Both the position numbers and the translations under genes were made by a program. Shown here piece after piece: positions 315 to 63,480 of a DNA stretch of 64,000 nt. The notes beneath the pieces were generated by a model that saw nothing but the letters and a program-made list of their open reading frames with translations, made no database searches and was not told the origin of the DNA. This DNA comes from Trichoplax sp. H2 (taxonomy: Eukaryota). The stretch covers positions 620,001 through 684,000 of the forward strand of contig NOWV01000017.1 in the NCBI GenBank assembly GCA_003344405.1, written 5' to 3'. Each line of letters begins with the position of its first letter. The stretch's first letter is position 1.

Positions 315-1877
315 ATGACGGAAAGTAAAGAAGATAACACTAGTACCATATACGATATTTTTAATCGATCAACTAGTGTTTGGAAACAAATATCGGAAAT
401 AGCAAGCAATAGCCGTAATGAATTACCTATACAACCAAGCGTGGCTATGGATTTATTAGAAAAATGCGCGAGAGAACTTGCGCGGATTGAACCAACCCCT
501 TCATCCGATACCGACGACGATGAAGCTGAAAATCAAAAACAACAAGAATTCTCAACGACAGAGATATTATCCAATGTATCATTTTGGTCATCGCAAATGC
601 TAAAAGTTATTTATAACAAGCAACTTTTACCTACTAATTTGTTGTCGCAACTAACCACCATACTATTTGGATGTATTCTGCATTCATTACGATTACTGAA
701 AGGTGATTCGTCTACACACAATCTATTGCGGCAAATTCTTACGACGATGGCACCGTCGGATACATCTAACGATAGTATTGACGAAGACGAAGATATTGAA
801 TCCAACGACGATTTTGTAAAAAATGAAACATTTCCTACCGATTCATCATCCGTTGATGACAGTGATAGCCATAGCCAATCAAGCTTAATTGCTCCAACTG
901 ATAGCACTATTTCAAATCCAACACAATCTAACGGAAACAGTGTAAGCCATTCTAACGTCACTAATTTTAGTGTCAATTGTATCCTAAGCAATAACAGAAA
1001 CACTGATGTCAAGAACCACGAGGAGTTACCAGTTGAGAAAATGAATGTTGCGGCTTGTTCGATGAATAAAGATCAAGATCATTCAGTTAAGCAAACGTTT
1101 ACCATAAATCGCGGTGTACCACTTCATCCCAATAATGTTTCATGCAATCCTGTTATTTCACCTGTTTTTATTTACGATATTACACCTGCTGGACCTCGTA
1201 TTATTCCAGTACCTCAACAACAAGCTATGCCACCAACTGCTGTAGCATATACCAATTTCGGCAATAATGTCAATGATCGCATTAACACAGTTAAACCGGT
1301 CGTCAATCCTTATCAGGGTGGCTATAATGATAACCCGCCGTTATTTTTCAAGAACAGAAATTTAGCATCACCTAATCGTAATGCATTAAATCACGATGGA
1401 CAATTTAACTATTACGATAATCATGGAGATGGCAGCAATCAAGATGGACCTTATCGATGTGATATCTGCTACAAAGCCTTTGGTCGCTCATATAGTCTAA
1501 CAAGACATAAGAGGATACATACTGGCGAGAAACCCTATCGATGCGACGTTTGCCATAAATCATTCACTCAGTCCTTTCATTTAAAAATGCATAAACGTAC
1601 GCATTCGCGCGATGTTTTATATTCGTGCGATATCTGTGGAAAAAGTTTTATCCAAGCAAATGATTTAAAGAAACATCGAAGAGTTCATACCGGCGAAAAA
1701 CCATACGTATGTATGATATGCCTAAAGCCTTTTACCGATTCCAGCCAGTTAAAACGTCATATTCGAGTTCATACTGGAGAAAAGCCATACACATGCGACA
1801 TTTGCAATAAATCGTTTTCGCAATCTGGTACGTTGGCAAAACATAAAAAAATCCATCTTAGAAACGCGGAGCAGTAA
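315..1877 (+). CDS. C2H2 zinc-finger transcription factor, 5 fingers, eh1 motif, N-terminal helical domain (cluster gene 1)
   Basis: 520-aa ATG ORF. Five CxxC-x12-HxxxH fingers from 1452, with three TGEKP linkers and one SRDVL linker. FSVNCIL at 966-986. Confidence 0.93.
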   Translation: MTESKEDNTSTIYDIFNRSTSVWKQISEIASNSRNELPIQPSVAMDLLEKCARELARIEPTPSSDTDDDEAENQKQQEFSTTEILSNVSFWSSQMLKVIYNKQLLPTNLLSQLTTILFGCILHSLRLLKGDSSTHNLLRQILTTMAPSDTSNDSIDEDEDIESNDDFVKNETFPTDSSSVDDSDSHSQSSLIAPTDSTISNPTQSNGNSVSHSNVTNFSVNCILSNNRNTDVKNHEELPVEKMNVAACSMNKDQDHSVKQTFTINRGVPLHPNNVSCNPVISPVFIYDITPAGPRIIPVPQQQAMPPTAVAYTNFGNNVNDRINTVKPVVNPYQGGYNDNPPLFFKNRNLASPNRNALNHDGQFNYYDNHGDGSNQDGPYRCDICYKAFGRSYSLTRHKRIHTGEKPYRCDVCHKSFTQSFHLKMHKRTHSRDVLYSCDICGKSFIQANDLKKHRRVHTGEKPYVCMICLKPFTDSSQLKRHIRVHTGEKPYTCDICNKSFSQSGTLAKHKKIHLRNAEQ

Positions 1878-13631: not shown

Positions 13632-15305
13632 ATGGCAGGAGGTATGGAGGAAGCTGTTGACATGATCCAGGCGATTAAGTCAAGCAGTACGCCATCAGAA
13701 TCCTATCAACGTTTTCATCAATTTGTTCAATGGTTGATTAAGACTATAGAAGATCACAGATTGGCCAATTCCAATATTGAAAAACTAGTCTTGATGCTAC
13801 ATGAACTGGCTCGAGAGTTAACCAATTATCGCTTAACGTTACCGCATGCAGTCGCTGAAGGCCAACGCGGCGGCATACACGTAATTTTATATAATATGAC
13901 ATGCTGGTGTATTCAATTAATTAACGCTCTAAAAGAGAATTGTTCTACAGACAAGTTAAATTTCATATTAGAAGCCACTACCCAAGCAGCGTTGGTTTAT
14001 GCTGGACTAATTACTATTGCAGCATCGGGTAGTAATAGCAGCAATATCATCGGGCCTAGCCTTGATAACACTTCTGACGTTGACAAAGATATCAACATAG
14101 ACAATTGTCAGAGTGCTTCACGGCCTGCCGTTTCGGCACAAGGTATCGACGATAGCAACATCGCTAGCAAAAGTGGAAATTCTAGTCCAAGTCAATACGA
14201 ACCTCATCAAAGCCGCACCATCGCCAATAAATATTCTAACCTTGGCCAAAAAGAGCTTACTAGCAAAACCCTTGAATCGACGACGTTAAAAGAGAACGAG
14301 GTCAATGTCACACAACCATCATGCGAGAAAGAGAAGAAGTCTCGAAAATCTGTTGAGGAAGACACCACCACCATAGTCAGTAATACGCGATCTGATGATG
14401 ACAACAGCCAACGATCCAAACGTGCATTAAAATCAAGTAAACGTGGTAATGATCGATTTGAAGTCCGAGAACCAACGAGCATCAAAACTTCCAGTAAGAA
14501 AAGCAATTTTTCTGTTAGTTACTTATTAAGCACTGCTTCTAATAAACAACGAAGTAATGTCAGTACAGGTAGCAAAAACAATTCTCCTTCAGATGAAGAT
14601 AGAGTTACAAGATCGGATACTCTACTCCGCACTACAAACGTCATGAGATTAAACACTCCTCGTGCAGTTCTACCCGGCAATAGCAACACTACACAACCAT
14701 CCACCTTTATTAATCGGCCCTTACTAACTTATCATCCATCACAACATCCGATGATAGTAAATGCGTCTAATAACAACGGACATCAAGCGCCAGTCTATTT
14801 GGCCGGCCCAAAAGTTGAAGGATTATATTACTACATGCAAACGCCAGTGGTGACATCAATTACCGGTCATACCAACATAAATACTCCAATTACCCCAAGC
14901 AGGGGTGAAATTCGTCCAGACCAAGCGAGCACAAGCAGCCAACATCATACTCCACGTGAGGAAGAGTTACGTGGAAATTTCTTTACTAGTAACAAAGTAT
15001 CGACGTTCGACGACAAGGACTATCTTCGTAAAGAAATTTCCAGTCCAGAATCGAGCTCCGCAATAACTGGACTTCGTGCTGGCGATCCACAGTCTAATGA
15101 AAGTAGAACTGGCAAATTATACCAGTGTGAAGTTTGTACAAAAACCTTTGGCCGCGCTTATTCACTAACTCGTCATAGACGTATCCACACTGGCGAGAAA
15201 CCCTACCATTGCGTCGTTTGTGGCAAATCATTCACCCAATCGTATCATTTAAAGATCCATATGAAAACCCATAGTCGTGATCGACATCGATCAAGGGAGG
15301 TTTAA
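13632..15305 (+). CDS. C2H2 zinc-finger transcription factor, 2 fingers, eh1 motif, N-terminal helical domain (cluster gene 2)
   Basis: Long ORF with first ATG at 13632 (the track starts at TTG 13629). Two fingers at 15120-15272 match fingers 1-2 of gene 1. FSVSYLL at 14508-14528. Confidence 0.9.
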
Positions 15306-20444: not shown

Positions 20445-21300
20445 TTTACAGTACTGTACTGTAAGTGTTACTGTACAGTATGACCCGGTTACGACTTGGC
20501 TTGTACTGTACAGTACAGTACTTTTACAGAATGCGAATGGTCAACACATGGTACTTAGTATTGAGTACTGGACGCAGAATTTTTTCCTAGTATGAAAAAA
20601 TTGTGACAATACCTTTGAAAAGATCCATAGCACAGTACAAACTACAAAGTGTAAAATGAATGTCAAGATGATAGTGTGCGGTAGTCTGCTTTGCTAGTTC
20701 CAAATATTCAGTATATATTATTCTACAGATTCTTTATCCTCCACTTTATACAGTACTAGTGAATTTTTCTTTTATGGTTGAGACCATTAATTGAAGTGAA
20801 AAAATTGTTTTTTTATTCGATACGTGTGATACGATACGCTACGGTTTTCTCCTTTGTACAGTACAGTACAGTATAGTGTACCTGTATTGAAAACTCTTGG
20901 ACGGACAGATGCTATCAACCTCATCTCGTTACCAAACACTGCGCTATGGCGGTACTTTAGTAAGCAGACGGTAGATTTTGAATTGACTGATGATATCTAA
21001 ATTAAAGTAATATTACGTTGAATCTTATTATTTGTTACAGAGTTCTGCTTGAAAAAGTTATATAGAAGATTGTAAATGCTATTTAAATTAGTACCTGTGA
21101 TTTAGAAAACAGAAATGGAAAATCCATAGTAAGTAGTCATTTTTCGATATTTACGACCTCATTTGGTAAGAAAAGTCCACCTGTCCGAGGGAGTGATCAG
21201 TCCAGGTCTTGTTCTAGTTGTCTACTGTACAGTTGTACTGTATACAGTACAGTACAGTGTACACTGTACAGTACATGTACTCGTATGTAATGTACTGTTT
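20445..21300. repeat. TACAG/CTGTA arrays with no adjacent ORF
   Basis: Arrays at about 20445-20530, 20855-20885 and 21222-21298. Confidence 0.75.
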
Positions 21301-29304: not shown

Positions 29305-30900
29305 TTATGGATTTTCGGCATCTCTTGAATGAATTCTGAAGTGGATTTTAAGATGATAACTCTGAGAAAAGGATTTTCCACACGTTGAACACTTGTAGGG
29401 CCTTTCACGAGTATGGATTCTTTTATGACGCGTTAAACTGTAGGAGCGTGTGAAAACCTTAAGACATATATTACAGCGGTACGTTTTATTGCTTGTGCTA
29501 CTTGCCAATTGAAAATATGGGAAACTTTCTTGAGTATGACGAACTTGTACGGGTGCGTATACCGGAGCAGGAAAAATATTTGGCAATTGATAGCAGTATG
29601 TGACAGGTAGCATATTTACTGCAAACTGCTGCGTGGCAATGGTATCAGAGGGAGCTGATGATGCTATTTGAGATGGGACAGATGATGCAAGGTTACCTTC
29701 AGCACTAACCTGTGTGTAATTCACATTATGCGCAACATTCCTGGCTAATGGATTTGACCCTCCTACATTTGATGACAAGACTGTTTTATAATTACTTAAA
29801 TTGGTATCATTTGAAATTTTAATTGTTGTTCCTTGTGACGAATCTCGTGCACTTTCAACATCACTACCAATGGATGTGGTTGAACTTTCGAGTAATTCAT
29901 TACTAGCATTTAATAATGTTGCTTCAGTTTCATCTGTAGGCGAGCTTAAGATACGTTTTACAGAAAAGCTGATCTTAGTGTTAGTCTTAGTAGTATTCAT
30001 AGTTAATGTAGTATCCTTGTCTAAGTTCAAGCATAAAGTGTTACGATTGTTGATTCTGGATGATCGTTTCTGCTTTTCAAATGTACCTTCTGCTACCAAT
30101 TGATTACTCCCAGATCGAGACGTGGTTAAAATTGCTATAGAGTCAATGTCGCTGCTATCGCTAGAAGATTCTCTAAATGATCCTTGGCGATGTTGTCTCT
30201 TATCGAGTCCTGAAGTAGGTAGTGAAGAAGTAATAGCTGCATTTTTTGCAGTTGGCAGCTCCATGTCGTCTCTGCTACAGCCTGCTACTGGACTATCACC
30301 TCTTAACAACGCAGACACGTTGCGGCTGGTTGTAATCTCACTATCATTGCTATCTTGCTTGATAATATTGCTTACGCATTTGTCACGGTTATTGCGTATG
30401 AAAGATGGAGTTAGGTTATCGTCTGATTGTGGAGTTCCAGATTGATTTCCGTCCCTTTCCAAAGGTTTATCGTTATAATAGATGTATTCCTTATTAGTCG
30501 ACGATATACTGGTATGGCTTCGGAATTGGTGCAATTCTAATATAATTGCAGCATAAACAGCGATCATATTGGTACAATAAGAGGGCAATGATAAATCTTC
30601 GTCGGCGGAGTTGAAAATTTTGTGTAGAAATTCCGTCAACCAAAATGTCATCTGGGATATAATTTCATCTATAGCAAAATTAGTTTTGCCAGTATCAAAT
30701 ACTGTTGACTTTTTTGATGCCGGATGAACAGGCAAATCTCCAAGCATTTCCCAAATAATTTTAAGATGAGACTTAGATAATTGCCCATAGCTAGCTGTAT
30801 TATCTCTGATAACTTGAAGCAATTTGCAAAATAATTTACTGATTGTGTATTGATCTCCACCTATTTTAATCTGTCGCAGTATATTGACTATATTTTCCAT
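29305..30900 (-). CDS. C2H2 zinc-finger transcription factor, 2 fingers, eh1 motif, N-terminal helical domain (cluster gene 3)
   Basis: 531-aa ATG ORF. Two fingers at 29329-29481 (RSYSLTR, QSYHLKI). FSVKRIL at 29947-29967. Confidence 0.9.
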   Translation of the reverse strand: MENIVNILRQIKIGGDQYTISKLFCKLLQVIRDNTASYGQLSKSHLKIIWEMLGDLPVHPASKKSTVFDTGKTNFAIDEIISQMTFWLTEFLHKIFNSADEDLSLPSYCTNMIAVYAAIILELHQFRSHTSISSTNKEYIYYNDKPLERDGNQSGTPQSDDNLTPSFIRNNRDKCVSNIIKQDSNDSEITTSRNVSALLRGDSPVAGCSRDDMELPTAKNAAITSSLPTSGLDKRQHRQGSFRESSSDSSDIDSIAILTTSRSGSNQLVAEGTFEKQKRSSRINNRNTLCLNLDKDTTLTMNTTKTNTKISFSVKRILSSPTDETEATLLNASNELLESSTTSIGSDVESARDSSQGTTIKISNDTNLSNYKTVLSSNVGGSNPLARNVAHNVNYTQVSAEGNLASSVPSQIASSAPSDTIATQQFAVNMLPVTYCYQLPNIFPAPVYAPVQVRHTQESFPYFQLASSTSNKTYRCNICLKVFTRSYSLTRHKRIHTRERPYKCSTCGKSFSQSYHLKIHFRIHSRDAENP

Positions 30901-31157: not shown

Positions 31158-31825
31158 TACACGTACAGTGCAGTACTGTACAGTACAGCAGTACAGTACA
31201 GTACTGTACAGTAGTGTACTGTACTTTCACAGCGTACAGTACTGTACACTGTACTGTACAGTACAGTATAGTCAAACAGTTTAGGGACCAAGAGAAAATT
31301 TTCTCTTAGTACTGTAGGTCCAGTACAGTACAGTAGGACTCCCGACTGGGTTTAAGCGACGTTCACAACGAAGTCGTGTGGCGTCCAGATGTCCTTTCGT
31401 CCACCGCCAGAACATTGAAGGCTACAGTATGTACTGTAAAGTACGTACTGTGTGTATCAAAGTATTTTGTCACTTTGAAAAGCATCAACCAGTGATCTTA
31501 ATGAGCAAATACTGATTAAGAGTTGTTACATTCCATAGCATTTATCATTCTATTATAGCTTTACTGTATTTTTAAAGAAAAATATTGCCCGAAAGTGACA
31601 AAATGTTATGGTACACAGTGTACTGCAAACTCTGGACAAAGCGGTCTTCATGATCTGGTCCGATCCGATCCGGACCCTGGTCTACGGGATGCAAAGATGG
31701 GCCTACAGTACTATATTTCTAGTACTGTAATCCTTGATCCTGTACTGTACTGTACGGCATACTGTACAGTTTACAGTATGAACTGACTAACTGTGAGTCA
31801 AGTACTGCTCTACAGTACAGTACTA
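31158..31825. repeat. TACAG/CTGTA arrays upstream of gene 3
   Basis: Dense array at 31158-31270; further blocks at about 31310-31335, 31420-31450 and 31700-31825. Confidence 0.85.
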
Positions 31826-41365: not shown

Positions 41366-42367
41366 CTAATTCGTGGCATTTCTATGTATTATTTTATGCT
41401 TAGTTAAAGCTCCCGACTGAGTAAATGATTTACCGCACACTAAACACTTATACGGCTTCTCTCCGGAATGAATTCGTTCATGTTTTCTTAGTTGACTAGA
41501 GTCTGTAAATCGTTTACCGCAATCAGAACATGAATACGGCTTTTCACCTGAGTGTATCCTATAATGCTTTTTCAGGTCATTGGCTTGCACGAATCTTTTG
41601 TTGCAAACATCACATTTATGTCTCAGATCTCCAGTATGAATTCTTCTATGGATAGTCAAATGATAAGGTTGGGTGAAAGCTTTCGTGCAAATATCACACT
41701 TGTAAGGTCTTTCACCAGTATGAATCCTCATATGACGAGTTAGGCAGTGATAACGATCAAAAGCTTTATTGCAGATTTTACAATAATGGGTTCCAGTAAT
41801 ATTAGTACCAGAACTACGGGTACCAAGGCGTTTGGTAATACTATCGTCTGACCATGTTTTGTCGTTTACAGGCTTGTCATTGTCAGAAATTTTTGTAGCA
41901 GTCACCGGTTGGATAACTGGCGAAGCAGTTTCTTTATGATGTTCAACAGGGTTCACGGGATTGGCAATAATGGCACCTGGTGACGCAGGCATGTACATTC
42001 GATTGCAAAAGAGGTAGTCAAACGGTAAACAACCAAAATATCCTGACATACCTAACTTGAAATTAACACCAAAGGTATTCATTAACGGCTGGATGGCAAA
42101 ATTCTTTTGAGGATATTGGTGGCAAAGATTACCACCTCCTTGATATTTTATCAGTGTTTTATCGTGAACACTACCCAAATTATGAAGGATTCGATCGACA
42201 GAAAATGGCAATGGACTAACTGCTTTACTAGCATCTGATTTAACCGCTACGTGATTGGGTTTACCGGTGCTTTCCAAGCCATCTCGATAGTGAGAGTTCT
42301 CATGAAGAGCTCCGATTGACGCATTATAATTGCTGAGAAAAGTGGGTCCCATGTAACTTCCTGCCAT
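41366..42367 (-). CDS. C2H2 zinc-finger transcription factor, 5 fingers, eh1 motif, N-terminal domain missing from the ORF (cluster gene 4)
   Basis: 333-aa ORF with five fingers paralogous to genes 1 and 5. FSVDRIL at 42185-42205. In-frame TAA at 42392-42394 upstream; true 5' structure uncertain. Confidence 0.87.
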   Translation of the reverse strand: MAGSYMGPTFLSNYNASIGALHENSHYRDGLESTGKPNHVAVKSDASKAVSPLPFSVDRILHNLGSVHDKTLIKYQGGGNLCHQYPQKNFAIQPLMNTFGVNFKLGMSGYFGCLPFDYLFCNRMYMPASPGAIIANPVNPVEHHKETASPVIQPVTATKISDNDKPVNDKTWSDDSITKRLGTRSSGTNITGTHYCKICNKAFDRYHCLTRHMRIHTGERPYKCDICTKAFTQPYHLTIHRRIHTGDLRHKCDVCNKRFVQANDLKKHYRIHSGEKPYSCSDCGKRFTDSSQLRKHERIHSGEKPYKCLVCGKSFTQSGALTKHKIIHRNATN

Positions 42368-46300: not shown

Positions 46301-47020
46301 ATGAATTGTTAGCCCAAGGATCAACTTGATCCCAATTTAGGCCTTGGTGATTGAATGTAGCTAACTTCATTGCTAGACAAACTACAGTCATTGGTACAGT
46401 TATAGAGGTTTCTTAGTACAGTAAATAAGAGAAAAATTCGGGACATGGACTTGTTCAAGTAGTCCTTTCTAGCTGTCCATGGTACAGTCATAGAGGTTTC
46501 TTAGTACAGTAAATAAGAGAAAAATTCGGGACTGAAAGTCGCTGTTCAGTGGAACAAATGTGCAGGCCGTTGCTGTAAATCAGTACATAACAACAATTCG
46601 ATCAATTACACATAGTAAAACCTTCACCAGCACGTACATTTGTTTAGCAGTAGCAAATCAAGTGCCGAGTTGGCCAATGCAGCTGGGAAATTTGATTTTG
46701 AAAATTATTCTTGATGGACTCCTAATACTGTACATTACAGCAGGCAGCCATGCTTTCGATTGCTCAAATTACTCTTGAGTGAAGTGTCGTAGAGAGTGTA
46801 ATACGTACACTCACTCACTGGCCTATTACAGTAGTAAACTGTTACTCTACTCTACTGGTACTGTACCGGTATCGTATAATGCTTGAAGATATCCCTATAC
46901 TGTACAGTACTTGACACGTGTACACTGTACTGTACAGTACAGTACCAGATATCGTAGTAATAAACGTCAGTGTTCCACAGTATACTGTATTATAGTCTGT
47001 ACTGTAGATATCTACTGTAA
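43385..47020. repeat. Scattered TACAG/CTGTA arrays upstream of gene 4
   Basis: Blocks at about 43390-43590, 44363-44425, 44655-44870, 45470-45640 and 46855-47020. Confidence 0.75.
46392..46532. repeat. 53-bp direct repeat (1 mismatch) with 35-bp spacer
   Basis: TGGTACAGT[T/C]ATAGAGGTTTCTTAGTACAGTAAATAAGAGAAAAATTCGGGAC at 46392-46444 and 46480-46532. Confidence 0.9.
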
Positions 47021-52780: not shown

Positions 52781-54394
52781 TTAATGATTACAAGTTTTTT
52801 TATGAATATTCTTATGTTTCATTAGGGTGCCTGATTGCGAAAATGACTTACCGCAAAGATCGCAAGAATACGGTTTATGTCCGGAATGGACACGTTCATG
52901 TTTCCTAAGCTGACTTGAATCCGTAAAACATTTTGAGCAAGTTTTACAACGATAAGGTTTTTCTCCTGTATGAGTTCTTCGATGTTTCTTAAGATCATTG
53001 TTTTGAATAAATTTTTTCCCGCATATATCACAAGTATATCGTAAATCGCCATTGTGAATACGCTTATGGATTTTCAAATGGAAAGATTGCGTAAATGACT
53101 TTTGACAGATATTACACGTGTACGGTTTCTCTCCTGTATGAATTCTTTGATGTCTTTTGAGACTGTACGCTCGCTGGAAGGTTTTATCGCAGCGTTGACA
53201 CCGATAATGCAATAAATTAGCTTCATCTTCTTGAGGTATATTTATAGTTTTCGTATTTATGCGATAGTTATCTTCAATATTGACATCGATTTTCTGTACA
53301 TTATTTTTATTTTCTTCGACGTTCGAAGAATTAACATTTTGTGGTAAATGTGAAATAGGTTGATCATTTTGAAGATTTTCCTCTTGCCTTTTAAAATTAT
53401 GCAATAAATCATTTTCTAAACATTTCCTTTGACAAATATTAGATCTTTCCTGAACTGCACTATCGATAACAGTCGAAGCTACATTGTCATTATTTATGTT
53501 AGTTGAGCAGGCATTATAATCACCTTCGTCAATAAAATGTAATTGTAGGCAATTCTTGGATCCTTGTAGTATGGTATCGATACTAAAATTCGTGAGTTGC
53601 TTTATCTTTGATAAATTTCTCTTCTTGTTTGGATGTCCATTTAGCTTTCTTCGAGAATATGATGATGACGCTTTATTACTTTCATTATCAGCATTAGATG
53701 GAATAGCAAGTAGGCTATCAGAAAGTGTAGGTATCATTACAATTTCGTTTGCTTTAATAGAATCAGTAGAATTAATCGACGTGGAGATAGAACTACTTGA
53801 GGTTTGTACATTATTTGAAACTGAATAATTTGGAGTAGCCGGATCATGTTCCGATAATTGACCGCTAAATTTCCAGTTATTTTCATTATTGATATGTAAT
53901 AAAGCTGAAGTAGACGCTATATTGTTATATTCACGAAAAATAGATGGTGGAAGTGAAGATGAATTCTTGTACAAGTGTATAGTAGGTATTTCGCTAATAT
54001 AAGAATAAAGCTTTATAGCCTCTTCAGCAGATATCTTACTAACGACAGTAGCAGCTATTGAGAAGGAAATTTTCAAAATTTTATCAACTATCTCTGTAAC
54101 CTTTTGGTTGTACGGATAAAAGCATTGATACAAAAATCGGCAATGGTCTGCCATATTACGGAGCAAACTCTTCAAGTTATTAGCTAATCTACCATCCTCT
54201 ATGTTATCAAGTAATAGTTGCTGTAGTTTAATCGAATCTTGTAATAATCGTCTAGCTATTAAATTAGTTCCCATCGGTGATACATGGTGCTTAAAATATT
54301 CCTGAAATAACTCTAATAAGATATAACAAGTCGCTACTAATTCGCAAGCTTGGAATCCCTCGATGGTAGTTGTAATGCTATGAGAGTTCTCCAT
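52781..54394 (-). CDS. C2H2 zinc-finger transcription factor, 5 fingers, eh1 motif, N-terminal helical domain (cluster gene 5)
   Basis: ORF with first ATG at 54394 (MENS...; the track starts at TTG 54406). Five fingers. FSIDTIL at 53567-53587. Confidence 0.92.
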   Translation of the reverse strand: MENSHSITTTIEGFQACELVATCYILLELFQEYFKHHVSPMGTNLIARRLLQDSIKLQQLLLDNIEDGRLANNLKSLLRNMADHCRFLYQCFYPYNQKVTEIVDKILKISFSIAATVVSKISAEEAIKLYSYISEIPTIHLYKNSSSLPPSIFREYNNIASTSALLHINNENNWKFSGQLSEHDPATPNYSVSNNVQTSSSSISTSINSTDSIKANEIVMIPTLSDSLLAIPSNADNESNKASSSYSRRKLNGHPNKKRNLSKIKQLTNFSIDTILQGSKNCLQLHFIDEGDYNACSTNINNDNVASTVIDSAVQERSNICQRKCLENDLLHNFKRQEENLQNDQPISHLPQNVNSSNVEENKNNVQKIDVNIEDNYRINTKTINIPQEDEANLLHYRCQRCDKTFQRAYSLKRHQRIHTGEKPYTCNICQKSFTQSFHLKIHKRIHNGDLRYTCDICGKKFIQNNDLKKHRRTHTGEKPYRCKTCSKCFTDSSQLRKHERVHSGHKPYSCDLCGKSFSQSGTLMKHKNIHKKTCNH

Positions 54395-60848: not shown

Positions 60849-63480
60849 CTACAGTATAGTACTGTACAGTACAGTACAGTACGTACTGTACTGTACTATA
60901 GAAAATAGTGCTAACATACAGTACTGTACTGTAACCTACTCAGTATCGGTATGGTAGAGATGTCGCCAGACTGCACGATTGCACGTGCAACGGGGTTTTA
61001 CAGTACTGAAATGGACATTTTTAGCATACTGTACTGTACAGTACGCCGACGGGAATACAGTACTGTACACTGTACAGTACAATACAGTATTGTGTTACAG
61101 TGCACGATTACAGTATCATGTACTGTACAGTAATGTAATAACAAACTATTGTATTAACCGTGCTGTCGCTTAGCCGAAGGTGATATTACACTACAGTACA
61201 GTATACAGTACAGTACAGTACTGTACAGTACATAGTACTGTACATTATACTGTACAATATGAGTACTGTACTGTACTGTACAGTATTGTACTGTAGTGCT
61301 GTACCGTGCATTTGTACAGCATACTGTACAGTACAGTACTGTGTACAGTACACGGTATAAAGTTGCTGAACCTCTGACAGGTCTGTCAAATGGTAATACA
61401 GTACTGTACTATCTGTTAAATGAGCACATTACAGCACTTTTATTGAGCACATTACTAGTTCTAATAATATCGACAATCTTATATAACTGTCTCCAAACGG
61501 AACTGAGTAACAAATAGTAAGATTTAGCGTAATATTACTTCATTTAGAGAACATGAGTCAATTCAAAATTGACCTTCTGCATACTAAAGCACTGTCATAA
61601 TGCAGTGTTTGACACAATATTTTGACGAGATGAGGTCGTAAATGTCTGTCCATCCTAGAGTGATCAAATGCAATTTCACAGACAGAGCGTACAGACGGCA
61701 CAGTATAACTGTACAGTACTGTAAACTTGTAGAAATATTACTTACTTATTACTGTAGATTATAGTTTAGTTTATGATAAAGTATGCTGATGTCAGTCTCT
61801 GATTTATATTTCTAAGAGTTTTGCTTTAAATTGAACTCAAATTCTACGTCAACAGATCCTTACAACCTTAAGCTTAACGCCTGATATTTTTTTAAATAAT
61901 TCATTTAATTTTTACTGCAGTACTGGTACAGTATTAACTTACTGTATTTGATCACCTCTACTGTACTTTTAAACAGTGGGATGATCTGGATCTTGGGTGA
62001 TATTTCGTATGCTTGTTTACCAATTCAAGGACTATTTAATCTTCTATTGTAGTCCTTGACTAAGGAGAATAACTCTAATTTTTCGATACTACTACAACAG
62101 TATACTAATGATGGCAATCTATAGCATAATAATGTGGCTCATGTCATGAGGCCACCCATGTGGGTGTAGGCTTCGAATGGGGTGATATCGTGATATTTAT
62201 GCTATGCTAACATTGATATTATTCGACCGAAGTACAGTATTGTTATTTATTTATTATTATTATTACTAGCACCATCCCCATCGCTTTATTGACGGTCTTT
62301 ACAGTACTTATTGATACATTTTACAGTACTATACAGTACATGTTACATACTGTACTGTACACTGTACTGTACAGTGTACTGTACAGTATAGTACAGTATA
62401 ACATAGCAATTACTGTACATACTGTACTGTACAGTACAACACATACTGTACAGTACCGTAAGTACATCATTACCTTGTAGTAACTGTATACAGTACTGCA
62501 CCAAGGCTGTATTTGCTAACAATAACTTCGAACTTCTGTACAAGTATTTGACCAATCGTCTCGCTCTGTAATTTAGACGACAACTGTGCAAATAAATTGG
62601 CATTGTAAATACTACCCAATTTATTCATGTACAGTACACTTGTACATAGTAAAGCATTTCATACAGTACTGTATTATTAGTGTAATGAGAGTAAAGTACT
62701 GTACAGCATACAGTAGAGATCTGTAGTGTCGACGTGGCGGTGGATTGGGGTTACTGGGGGTTACAAGGTGTACAGTACGAAGCTGGTCAATATAAACTTC
62801 TGATGCAGCTACGCGTTCGTCTTGCTTTAATACAAAAGGAAAGATTTGTGCTGTAAAGTGTATCATTAAAATACTTGGTATATACTCATCGATGACATGG
62901 CAGTGGTTATAGATTACAACGACATTTCAACCATTCAGACTGAGGGAAAAGCCGTAAGAATTTGGTGTGACGGATGGTAATGTTAATCCATGCAAATACT
63001 TATATATACAGTATACTGTACGGTATATTAATGTAACGACAACTGACTCAACTGACTTTACAACGATGAGATAAGTTGTACTATTGTAGAGTAATAAGAG
63101 TTAAAGACAGATCATACTTTAGTGTCCATAGAAGCTGCTCTACTAAGGATAGTGAAGTAAAATCAAGGTGGATGCTTTCTTTTGATGCTATTGACTTGTA
63201 CAAAGTCTAGCTAAAATTCAGCTTTAATTAGTGTATTATATTATTAAAGGATGCGTGCCATCAATTGTATCGTCCACTACAATTTGACAATAACAATAAT
63301 ACAGTACAGTACTGTACTGTACTGTAGGTAGATGATGTGAACGGTAGGCCTGCCGTAGACATTAATGACCTTTTATACTTGAGCTGAACAGTACATTGTA
63401 TAGGAAACAGATCTGTGTATGCGCGTTTATACTGTACAGTACAGCAGTCTGTTGGTCGACTGTGCACTATACTGTAAATT
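60849..63480. repeat. Dense TACAG/CTGTA arrays
   Basis: Blocks at 60849-60935, 61025-61135, 61190-61410, 62300-62500, 62630-62720 and 63298-63475. Confidence 0.85.

Follow-up and report, generated by a model that had tools for sequence, protein, structure and literature searches.

A candidate N-terminal helical domain in a tandem family of C2H2 zinc-finger genes from the placozoan Trichoplax sp. H2

The stretch of DNA analysed here, 64,000 nucleotides (nt) from Trichoplax sp. H2 (Placozoa; NOWV01000017.1:620,001-684,000, forward strand; hereafter the window), contains five long single-exon (intronless) open reading frames (ORFs) that encode C2H2 zinc-finger proteins, lie 12-15 kb apart on both strands and are referred to below as genes 1-5. 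Judging from sequence comparison, genes 1, 2 and 3 share, beyond chance, a homologous all-helical N-terminal region of about 120 amino acids (aa). This region looks like a real, unnamed and placozoan-restricted helical domain in genes 1-3, and probably extends to gene 5 as well. We give roughly even chances to the broader proposal that a folded all-helical domain of ~110-130 residues heads this tandem placozoan C2H2 family and serves there as an interaction module.

A homologous N-terminal region in genes 1, 2 and 3

An earlier note on this DNA had proposed a conserved helical domain at 447-700, which corresponds to gene 1 residues 45-129 and covers helices 2-4 of the model described below. 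Its aligned core starts at nt 561 in gene 1 (EILSNVSFWSSQML, residue 83; nt 561-602), at nt 13881 in gene 2 (residue 84) and at nt 30666 in gene 3 (EIISQMTFWLTEFL, residue 79), and the strings and coordinates that it quoted all proved correct when the ORF positions were checked in genes 1, 2, 3 and 5. A search without prior for the best ungapped 14-mer among the first 150 residues of genes 1, 2 and 3, controlled with 2000 shuffles, returned exactly this core as the best three-way block (residues 83/84/79), with a star score of 66 against a shuffle mean of 39 (standard deviation 4.2) and 0/2000 shuffles reaching 66. Pairwise BLASTP over the first 150 aa gave E values of 9.6e-05 for genes 1 and 3, 0.055 for genes 1 and 2, and 0.49 for genes 2 and 3. 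When each protein in turn was left out of a hidden Markov model (HMM) and compared with 1000 shuffles of itself, its score was reached by 0/1000 shuffles for gene 1, 0/1000 for gene 3 and 19/1000 for gene 2. Alignment by hhalign of gene 2 and its orthologue P0124 with genes 1 and 3 gave P 0.009 over 96 collinear columns, the core included. The hydropathy maximum also falls on the same helix after the core in the three proteins (residues 104-122 in gene 1, 111-129 in gene 2 and 103-121 in gene 3). For genes 1-3, the aligned core and the mutual alignment of N-termini anticipated in the earlier note are thus statistically significant; gene 5, which the note had included in both, is weighed separately below.

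Using a six-frame HMM scan of the 951 stop-to-stop ORFs of at least 30 aa in the window, genes 1, 2, 3 and 5 could be identified and no others, the next best candidate scoring 6.8 bits, and gene 4 is thus without the domain. An upstream exon that would supply gene 4 with it was considered and ruled out, as the scan and the ORF list show no coding-looking candidate between 42.4 and 52.7 kb. Gene 4 has probably lost an ancestral domain. The description of the domain as shared by the paralogs therefore holds for genes 1-3 but was overstated, given its lack in gene 4.

The coding status of the region is indicated by the length of the ORFs themselves. In genes 1, 2, 3 and 5 no stop interrupts the 135 codons before the linker, at 34-40% GC, where one would be expected every 14-16 codons, and the probability of this by chance is 4e-05 to 1.4e-04 for each gene. 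An RNA-library contig of 822 nt covers positions 314-1135 (gene 1) without a joint, and four small contigs from a second RNA run all lie within the gene 1 ORF; as assembled contigs, these attest to contiguity, and neither to expression level nor, given possible DNA carry-over, to transcription as such. The model of P0124 begins at gene 2 Met55, and over residues 55-132 of the domain the two proteins are identical at 65/77 positions (84%), compared with 200/358 (56%) in the linker and 58/61 in the fingers (domain versus linker, Fisher p 1.4e-06). By this comparison, the domain of gene 2 is under stronger constraint than its linker.

Predicted fold and searches for relatives

The N-terminus of gene 5 (residues 1-150), modelled with AlphaFold2 together with its orthologue P0010, gave a predicted local distance difference test score (pLDDT) of 74 and a predicted template modelling score (pTM) of 0.71, with a pLDDT of ~85-93 over most of the bundle. 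The model consists of helices at residues 11-33, 41-62, 68-92 and 97-117, plus a short one at 123-130, and closes as a single-chain bundle that needs no partner to fold. This part of gene 5 is predicted, fairly confidently, to be an up-down four-helix bundle, an assignment that concerns the fold class and points to no specific relative. The corresponding model of gene 1 (residues 1-150, six-sequence alignment) is of low confidence (pLDDT 58.5, pTM 0.46); it has helices at residues 3-33, 41-58, 81-102 (with the core), 107-127 and 132-145, in the same order as those of gene 5. Both models are all-helical and contain no strand, with the above caution on gene 1. The helices that the earlier note described as amphipathic before the core and hydrophobic after it have their support in these predicted models only. 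That the hydrophobic helix might be a membrane anchor was rejected: the maximum hydropathy over 19 residues is 1.23-1.53, and such a topology makes no sense for a DNA-binding protein. The classical threshold for a membrane helix is 1.6. A homodimer prediction with two copies of gene 1 residues 1-150 scored 0.01, but the alignment went unused and the fold of the partners was itself uncertain, so that it is evidence neither way.

Structure similarity searches against the PDB with Foldseek found no match at E <= 0.001 for either model. The best match of the gene 1 model has an E value of 0.2, and those of the gene 5 model are generic bundles with TM scores of 0.5-0.69, depending on the target, and E values of 0.4 or worse. 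An exhaustive comparison of the gene 5 model with 48,161 chains using VIA-align gave Z-scores of 10.8-12.8 and root-mean-square deviations of 1.9-4.3 over 97-117 residues for its best matches, viz., single-chain ROP, Csp1, pectin methylesterase inhibitor, designed bundles, talin rod bundles and several tetraspan membrane proteins, and 89/48,161 chains reach Z >= 8; by the tool's own calibration, a Z under ~13 for helical bundles denotes a common arrangement. The generic bundles (ROP 1yo7, Csp1 5fjd, pectin methylesterase inhibitor 1x8z and the designed 7m5t and 7dgu) resemble the gene 5 model in fold, but share 4-14% sequence identity with it and have no functional link.

Sequence searches gave a similar picture. 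Pfam searches with hmmscan, at E <= 1 for the five whole proteins and at E <= 10 for the six N-termini, found no match to KRAB, SCAN, BTB, SET or zf-AD, in agreement with what the earlier note had stated of these families. No Pfam family matches more than 1/6 N-termini, and on the whole proteins the matches are to C2H2 finger families. A family profile searched against the PDB sequences had its best hit at E 0.067 (ROP), with none significant. Among 1,835,955,588 representative proteins, the profile found five matches at E <= 0.001, three of which are gene 5, gene 1 and P0124. The other two, P0123 (2092 aa, tandem repeats) and P0125 (1041 aa, helical repeats), were rejected as artefacts, their scores adding up 10 and 5 almost identical copies that are individually weak (0.4-12.3 bits). 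A word-index search with gene 1 residues 1-150 retrieved only gene 1 itself among 174 candidates, and one with the five-sequence profile, over longer proteins, retrieved only four family members among 8000 candidates, gene 3 not being listed. In the ESM Atlas, gene 2 residues 1-140 had no usable feature match, and the structure rows reached TM <= 0.50 to unrelated helical proteins. Full-text literature searches yielded no paper that describes the family. The domain thus appears to match no described family and, as far as the databases searched show, to be confined to this cluster and its placozoan orthologues; the earlier claim of a new helical region of ~120 aa is borne out to the extent that it has no confident Pfam match and no relative in PDB sequences or folds beyond generic four-helix bundles.

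The zinc-finger gene cluster and its eh1-like motifs

The window is AT-rich, with a GC content of 0.27-0.39 in steps of 2 kb. The C2H2 fingers score 45.6-105.1 bits against Pfam PF00096 in 5/5 proteins (gathering cut-off 25.2), and the matches to zf-C2H2 and zf-H2C2_2 have E values down to 1.6e-36. Genes 1, 4 and 5 have five fingers each, and genes 2 and 3 have two. The positions of the genes and their features are collected in the table.

Table. Features of the C2H2 zinc-finger gene cluster in the window (positions in nt of the window)
Feature	Position	Strand	Description	Basis
Gene 1	315-1877	+	intronless ORF, 520 aa; N-terminal helical domain, linker with eh1-like motif, five C2H2 fingers	ORF list, Pfam
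Gene 2	13632-15305	+	intronless ORF, 557 aa, two C2H2 fingers only; ends just past HSRD	
Gene 3	29305-30900	-	intronless ORF, 531 aa, two C2H2 fingers	
Gene 4	41366-42367	-	333 aa paralogue; eh1-like motif at residue 55, five fingers, without N-terminal helical domain	
Gene 5	52781-54394	-	intronless ORF, 537 aa, five fingers	
Gene 1 N-terminal helical domain	321-749	+		AlphaFold2 model (low confidence); three-way block
Gene 2 N-terminal domain	13644-14027	+	~residues 5-132; IEDHRLAN 39-46; core 84-97 (nt 13881-13922)	
Gene 3 N-terminal domain	30520-30900	-	~residues 1-127; core EIISQMTFWLTEFL from nt 30666 (residue 79)	
Gene 5 N-terminal four-helix bundle (predicted)	54005-54364	-	IEDGRLAN residues 65-72; SLLRNMADHCRFLY residues 76-89	
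Gene 1 C2H2 finger array	1452-1874	+		Pfam
Gene 2 C2H2 finger array	15120-15302	+		Pfam
Gene 3 C2H2 finger array	29308-29481	-		Pfam
Gene 4 C2H2 finger array	41369-41788	-		Pfam
Gene 5 C2H2 finger array	52784-53206	-		Pfam
Gene 1 eh1-like motif	966-986	+	FSVNCIL	
Gene 2 eh1-like motif	14508-14528	+	FSVSYLL	
Gene 3 eh1-like motif	29947-29967	-	FSVKRIL	
Gene 4 eh1-like motif	42185-42205	-	FSVDRIL	
Gene 5 eh1-like motif	53567-53587	-	FSIDTIL	
Copies of TACTGTACAGTA	12455, 18546, 20469-20515, 31174-31263, 44383, 46898-46939, 51454, 60860-61333, 62377-62455, 63430			

The eh1 consensus is of the FxIxxIL type and recruits Groucho/TLE. An eh1-like motif of the form FS[VI]xx[IL]L is present exactly once in the linker of each protein (5/5 ORFs). 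The pattern F[ST][IV]..[IL][IL] likewise occurs once per gene in the five ORFs, with two further matches among the 951 six-frame ORFs, and the motif is kept in both orthologues, P0010 and P0124; a FxIxxIL-type heptapeptide conserved in relatives was thus found in 5/5 ORFs. The consensus is in line with Copley 2005 (PMC1310626), which counts ces-1, bowl and odd among the eh1-bearing C2H2 proteins. According to Copley 2016 (PMC4943189), an association of eh1 with C2H2 fingers was not found in the non-bilaterians examined. On the face of their sequences, the five genes of the window contradict this statement, and they may be the first case of eh1 with C2H2 fingers in a non-bilaterian. All five are probably Groucho-dependent repressors, a putative assignment drawn from the motif.

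Genes 2 and 3 end a few codons past 'HSRD', where gene 1 (…HSRDVLYSC…) runs on into finger 3. Because the stop falls where gene 1 enters finger 3, the comparison suggests that genes 2 and 3 are cut-down versions of an ancestor with five fingers and belong to a single clade with gene 1. Searched at full length, gene 5 matched at 100% identity a protein with a different C-terminus, 'Zinc finger protein 233 [Trichoplax sp. H2]', and at 57% identity and 98% coverage the orthologue P0010. The public gene 5 model (P0002, 528 aa) diverges from the uninterrupted ORF near the C-terminus (52781-52850, minus strand) and loses finger 5; it probably contains a false intron, because P0010 agrees with the uninterrupted ORF. 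Gene 3, unlike genes 1, 2 and 5, has no entry listed in two large protein databases and may be unannotated in the public record. A palindromic 12-mer, TACTGTACAGTA, occurs in 21 copies in the window against 0.05 expected; all copies are intergenic and often clustered, for example just upstream of gene 3, and they could represent a dispersed repeat or a regulatory site.

Alternative readings and possible role

Several results weigh against a single domain heading the whole family and acting as an interaction module, and we collect them here. The best gene 5 14-mer against the three cores, SLLRNMADHCRFLY, has BLOSUM62 scores of only 4, 14 and -3, which is not above chance; the best block between genes 1 and 5 sits away from the core and is matched by 1912/2000 shuffles; and hhalign of gene 5 plus P0010 against genes 1-3 yields a probability of 0.5% (E 0.11). 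The part of the earlier core alignment that took in gene 5 is thus not upheld. The register that MAFFT gives to gene 5 changes with the set of sequences, between two that exclude each other: register A sets IEDGRLAN (gene 5) on IEDHRLAN (gene 2), and register B is that of the earlier note. IEDGRLAN is not conserved in P0010, and between gene 5 and P0010 the domain (64/133 identical) is not distinguishable in constraint from the linker (111/256; p 0.39), with the fingers at 126/141. To these are added the low confidence of the gene 1 model, the closed single-chain form of the gene 5 model, the ambiguous nature of the RNA contigs and the size of the family sample, six sequences of which one is N-terminally truncated. 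The gene 5 results would fit a domain restricted to genes 1-3, with the N-terminus of gene 5 an unrelated or unrecognisably diverged bundle in the same position; such a restriction is further favoured by a leave-out HMM score for gene 5 that 60/1000 shuffles reach (17/1000 for P0010), by the unstable register and by the fact that four-helix bundles are among the commonest folds, as the 89 chains at Z >= 8 illustrate. We regard it as doubtful, though a serious contender, since gene 5 is a tandem paralogue of the same architecture, with 62-68% identity in the fingers, and since it shares a local match with gene 2. The latter, a 14-mer over IED[H/G]RLAN (gene 5 side, QLLLDNIEDGRLAN), scores 40, which 0/2000 shuffles reach, and BLASTP stretches it to 40 aa at E 0.003. 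It confirms the earlier observation of this string in genes 2 and 5 in a different register, being out of register with the note's own core alignment. Recent gene conversion was rejected as its source, as the codons differ at synonymous sites. The start of genes 2, 3 and 5 and of P0010 is also alike, ME[EN]-x-[IV]-x-x-I-x-x-I/G (from window positions 13644, 30900 and 54394; first 13 residues), though this is a short stretch; the common ME..I..I start speaks against the restriction to genes 1-3 and is a hint that the N-termini of genes 2, 3 and 5 share ancestry. In the AlphaFold2 models of genes 1 and 5, the third of the long helices carries the proposed core in both, which fits the helix-for-helix register of the earlier note, whereas the local match between genes 2 and 5 points to a shift by one helix. 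The gene 5 bundle probably goes back to the ancestral domain of genes 1-3 and has since diverged strongly; its position and architecture, its similar number of helices and a single local match, at odds with the note's register, speak for this.

That there is no domain at all, and that hydrophobic, helix-prone N-termini resemble each other by chance or composition, appears very improbable, the least likely of the readings considered. The N-terminal alignments do have only 12-26% identity, the six aligned sequences have neither an invariant column nor conserved pairs of cysteines, and confidence in the gene 1 model is low; but the match between genes 1 and 3, the three-way statistics, the collinearity of the matches, the 84% conservation in the gene 2 orthologue and the confident gene 5 bundle are hard to reconcile with it, and for genes 1-3 it is largely refuted. 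Only slightly less improbable is a very distant membership in a known helical-bundle family, for example one that is MLKL_N/HeLo-like or KNTase_C/HEPN-like. In the ESM Atlas, the nearest feature clusters for gene 5 residues 1-135 have MLKL_N in 36% and 57% of their members (scores 0.85 and 0.83), but a third of shuffled proteins also attain Atlas scores in the range below 0.9, and only 129/256 features are common. Gene 3 residues 88-146 match KNTase_C at E 0.0066 (domain alone, 0.00073), but the score of 16.7 bits is below the 26.4-bit cut-off and the match concerns 1/6 members; MLKL_N has no Pfam match, and neither family is among the 50 matches listed by Foldseek or VIA-align. A further rival concerns function and not existence: instead of self-association, the domain could serve as an effector or in regulation, by docking a cofactor from outside the family or by masking the fingers. 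The gene 5 model, a self-contained monomeric bundle, is compatible with such a role, and KRAB sets a precedent, as an N-terminal domain of C2H2 factors that can dock a cofactor. However, an eh1-type co-repressor motif is already present in these proteins, and with an effector module the two-finger members would remain short of DNA specificity; we consider this role possible but unlikely.

The role that we favour for the domain is that of a protein-protein interaction module, which would most likely pair these factors with themselves or with each other, docking of another cofactor being the next most likely. A two-finger member (gene 2 or 3), which alone would contact ~6 bp, would gain DNA specificity when paired, and this would allow the co-repressor bound through eh1 to reach its target. 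If the domain is real, we would place self- or hetero-association, by analogy, at or a little below even chances. It is favoured because the two-finger members keep the domain, because the two-finger gene 2 has the strongest domain constraint, and because BTB, SCAN and ZAD, the N-terminal modules of other C2H2 factors, are (self-)association domains. A more specific version, in which the domain is a lineage-born placozoan counterpart of SCAN or ZAD through which two- and five-finger paralogues homo- or heterodimerise as combinatorial Groucho-dependent repressors, is speculative, and we give it a low probability.

Comparison with known systems supports the view that this is a new, unnamed accessory domain within a known architectural kind. 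Animal C2H2 families have gained lineage-specific N-terminal modules time and again, viz., KRAB in tetrapods, SCAN in vertebrates and ZAD in insects, and these set pairing and recruitment. SCAN (PF02023, vertebrate C2H2 proteins) is the model for the proposed association: like the placozoan domain, it is an all-helical N-terminal accessory module in a lineage-restricted tandem C2H2 family. SCAN has ~80 residues and five helices and forms a domain-swapped dimer, whereas the placozoan bundle spans ~110-130 residues and is modelled as a closed single chain; there is no sequence match between them, and SCAN is not among the fold matches listed. BTB/POZ, ZAD and KRAB occupy the same slot, an N-terminal module followed by a linker and C-terminal fingers, and follow a comparable general principle, oligomerising the factor or recruiting a co-repressor. 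They differ in that the placozoan domain matches none of their HMMs, is all-helical and is without conserved cysteines, whereas BTB is alpha/beta with a core beta-sheet, ZAD is a Cys4 zinc module and KRAB has ~50 residues. Bilaterian eh1-bearing C2H2 repressors (odd/bowl, ces-1 and Fezf) share with the window genes the combination of eh1 and C2H2 fingers, but are not reported to have the N-terminal domain described here, and the fingers of the window genes are of a generic Krueppel type without an established specific orthology.

With four genes in a single cluster, the family is tiny; it is also fast-evolving and its proposed function is putative, so that the finding amounts to a useful annotation and a modest lead. 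If the proposed domain is real, an independent module of this kind would have arisen in Placozoa, which are among the earliest-branching animal phyla, and such innovation in transcription factors would be both old and recurrent. The module would also open a way into a group of probable Groucho-dependent repressors that has so far gone unstudied and, if the combinatorial reading were true, into a small repressor set in an animal with very few cell types.

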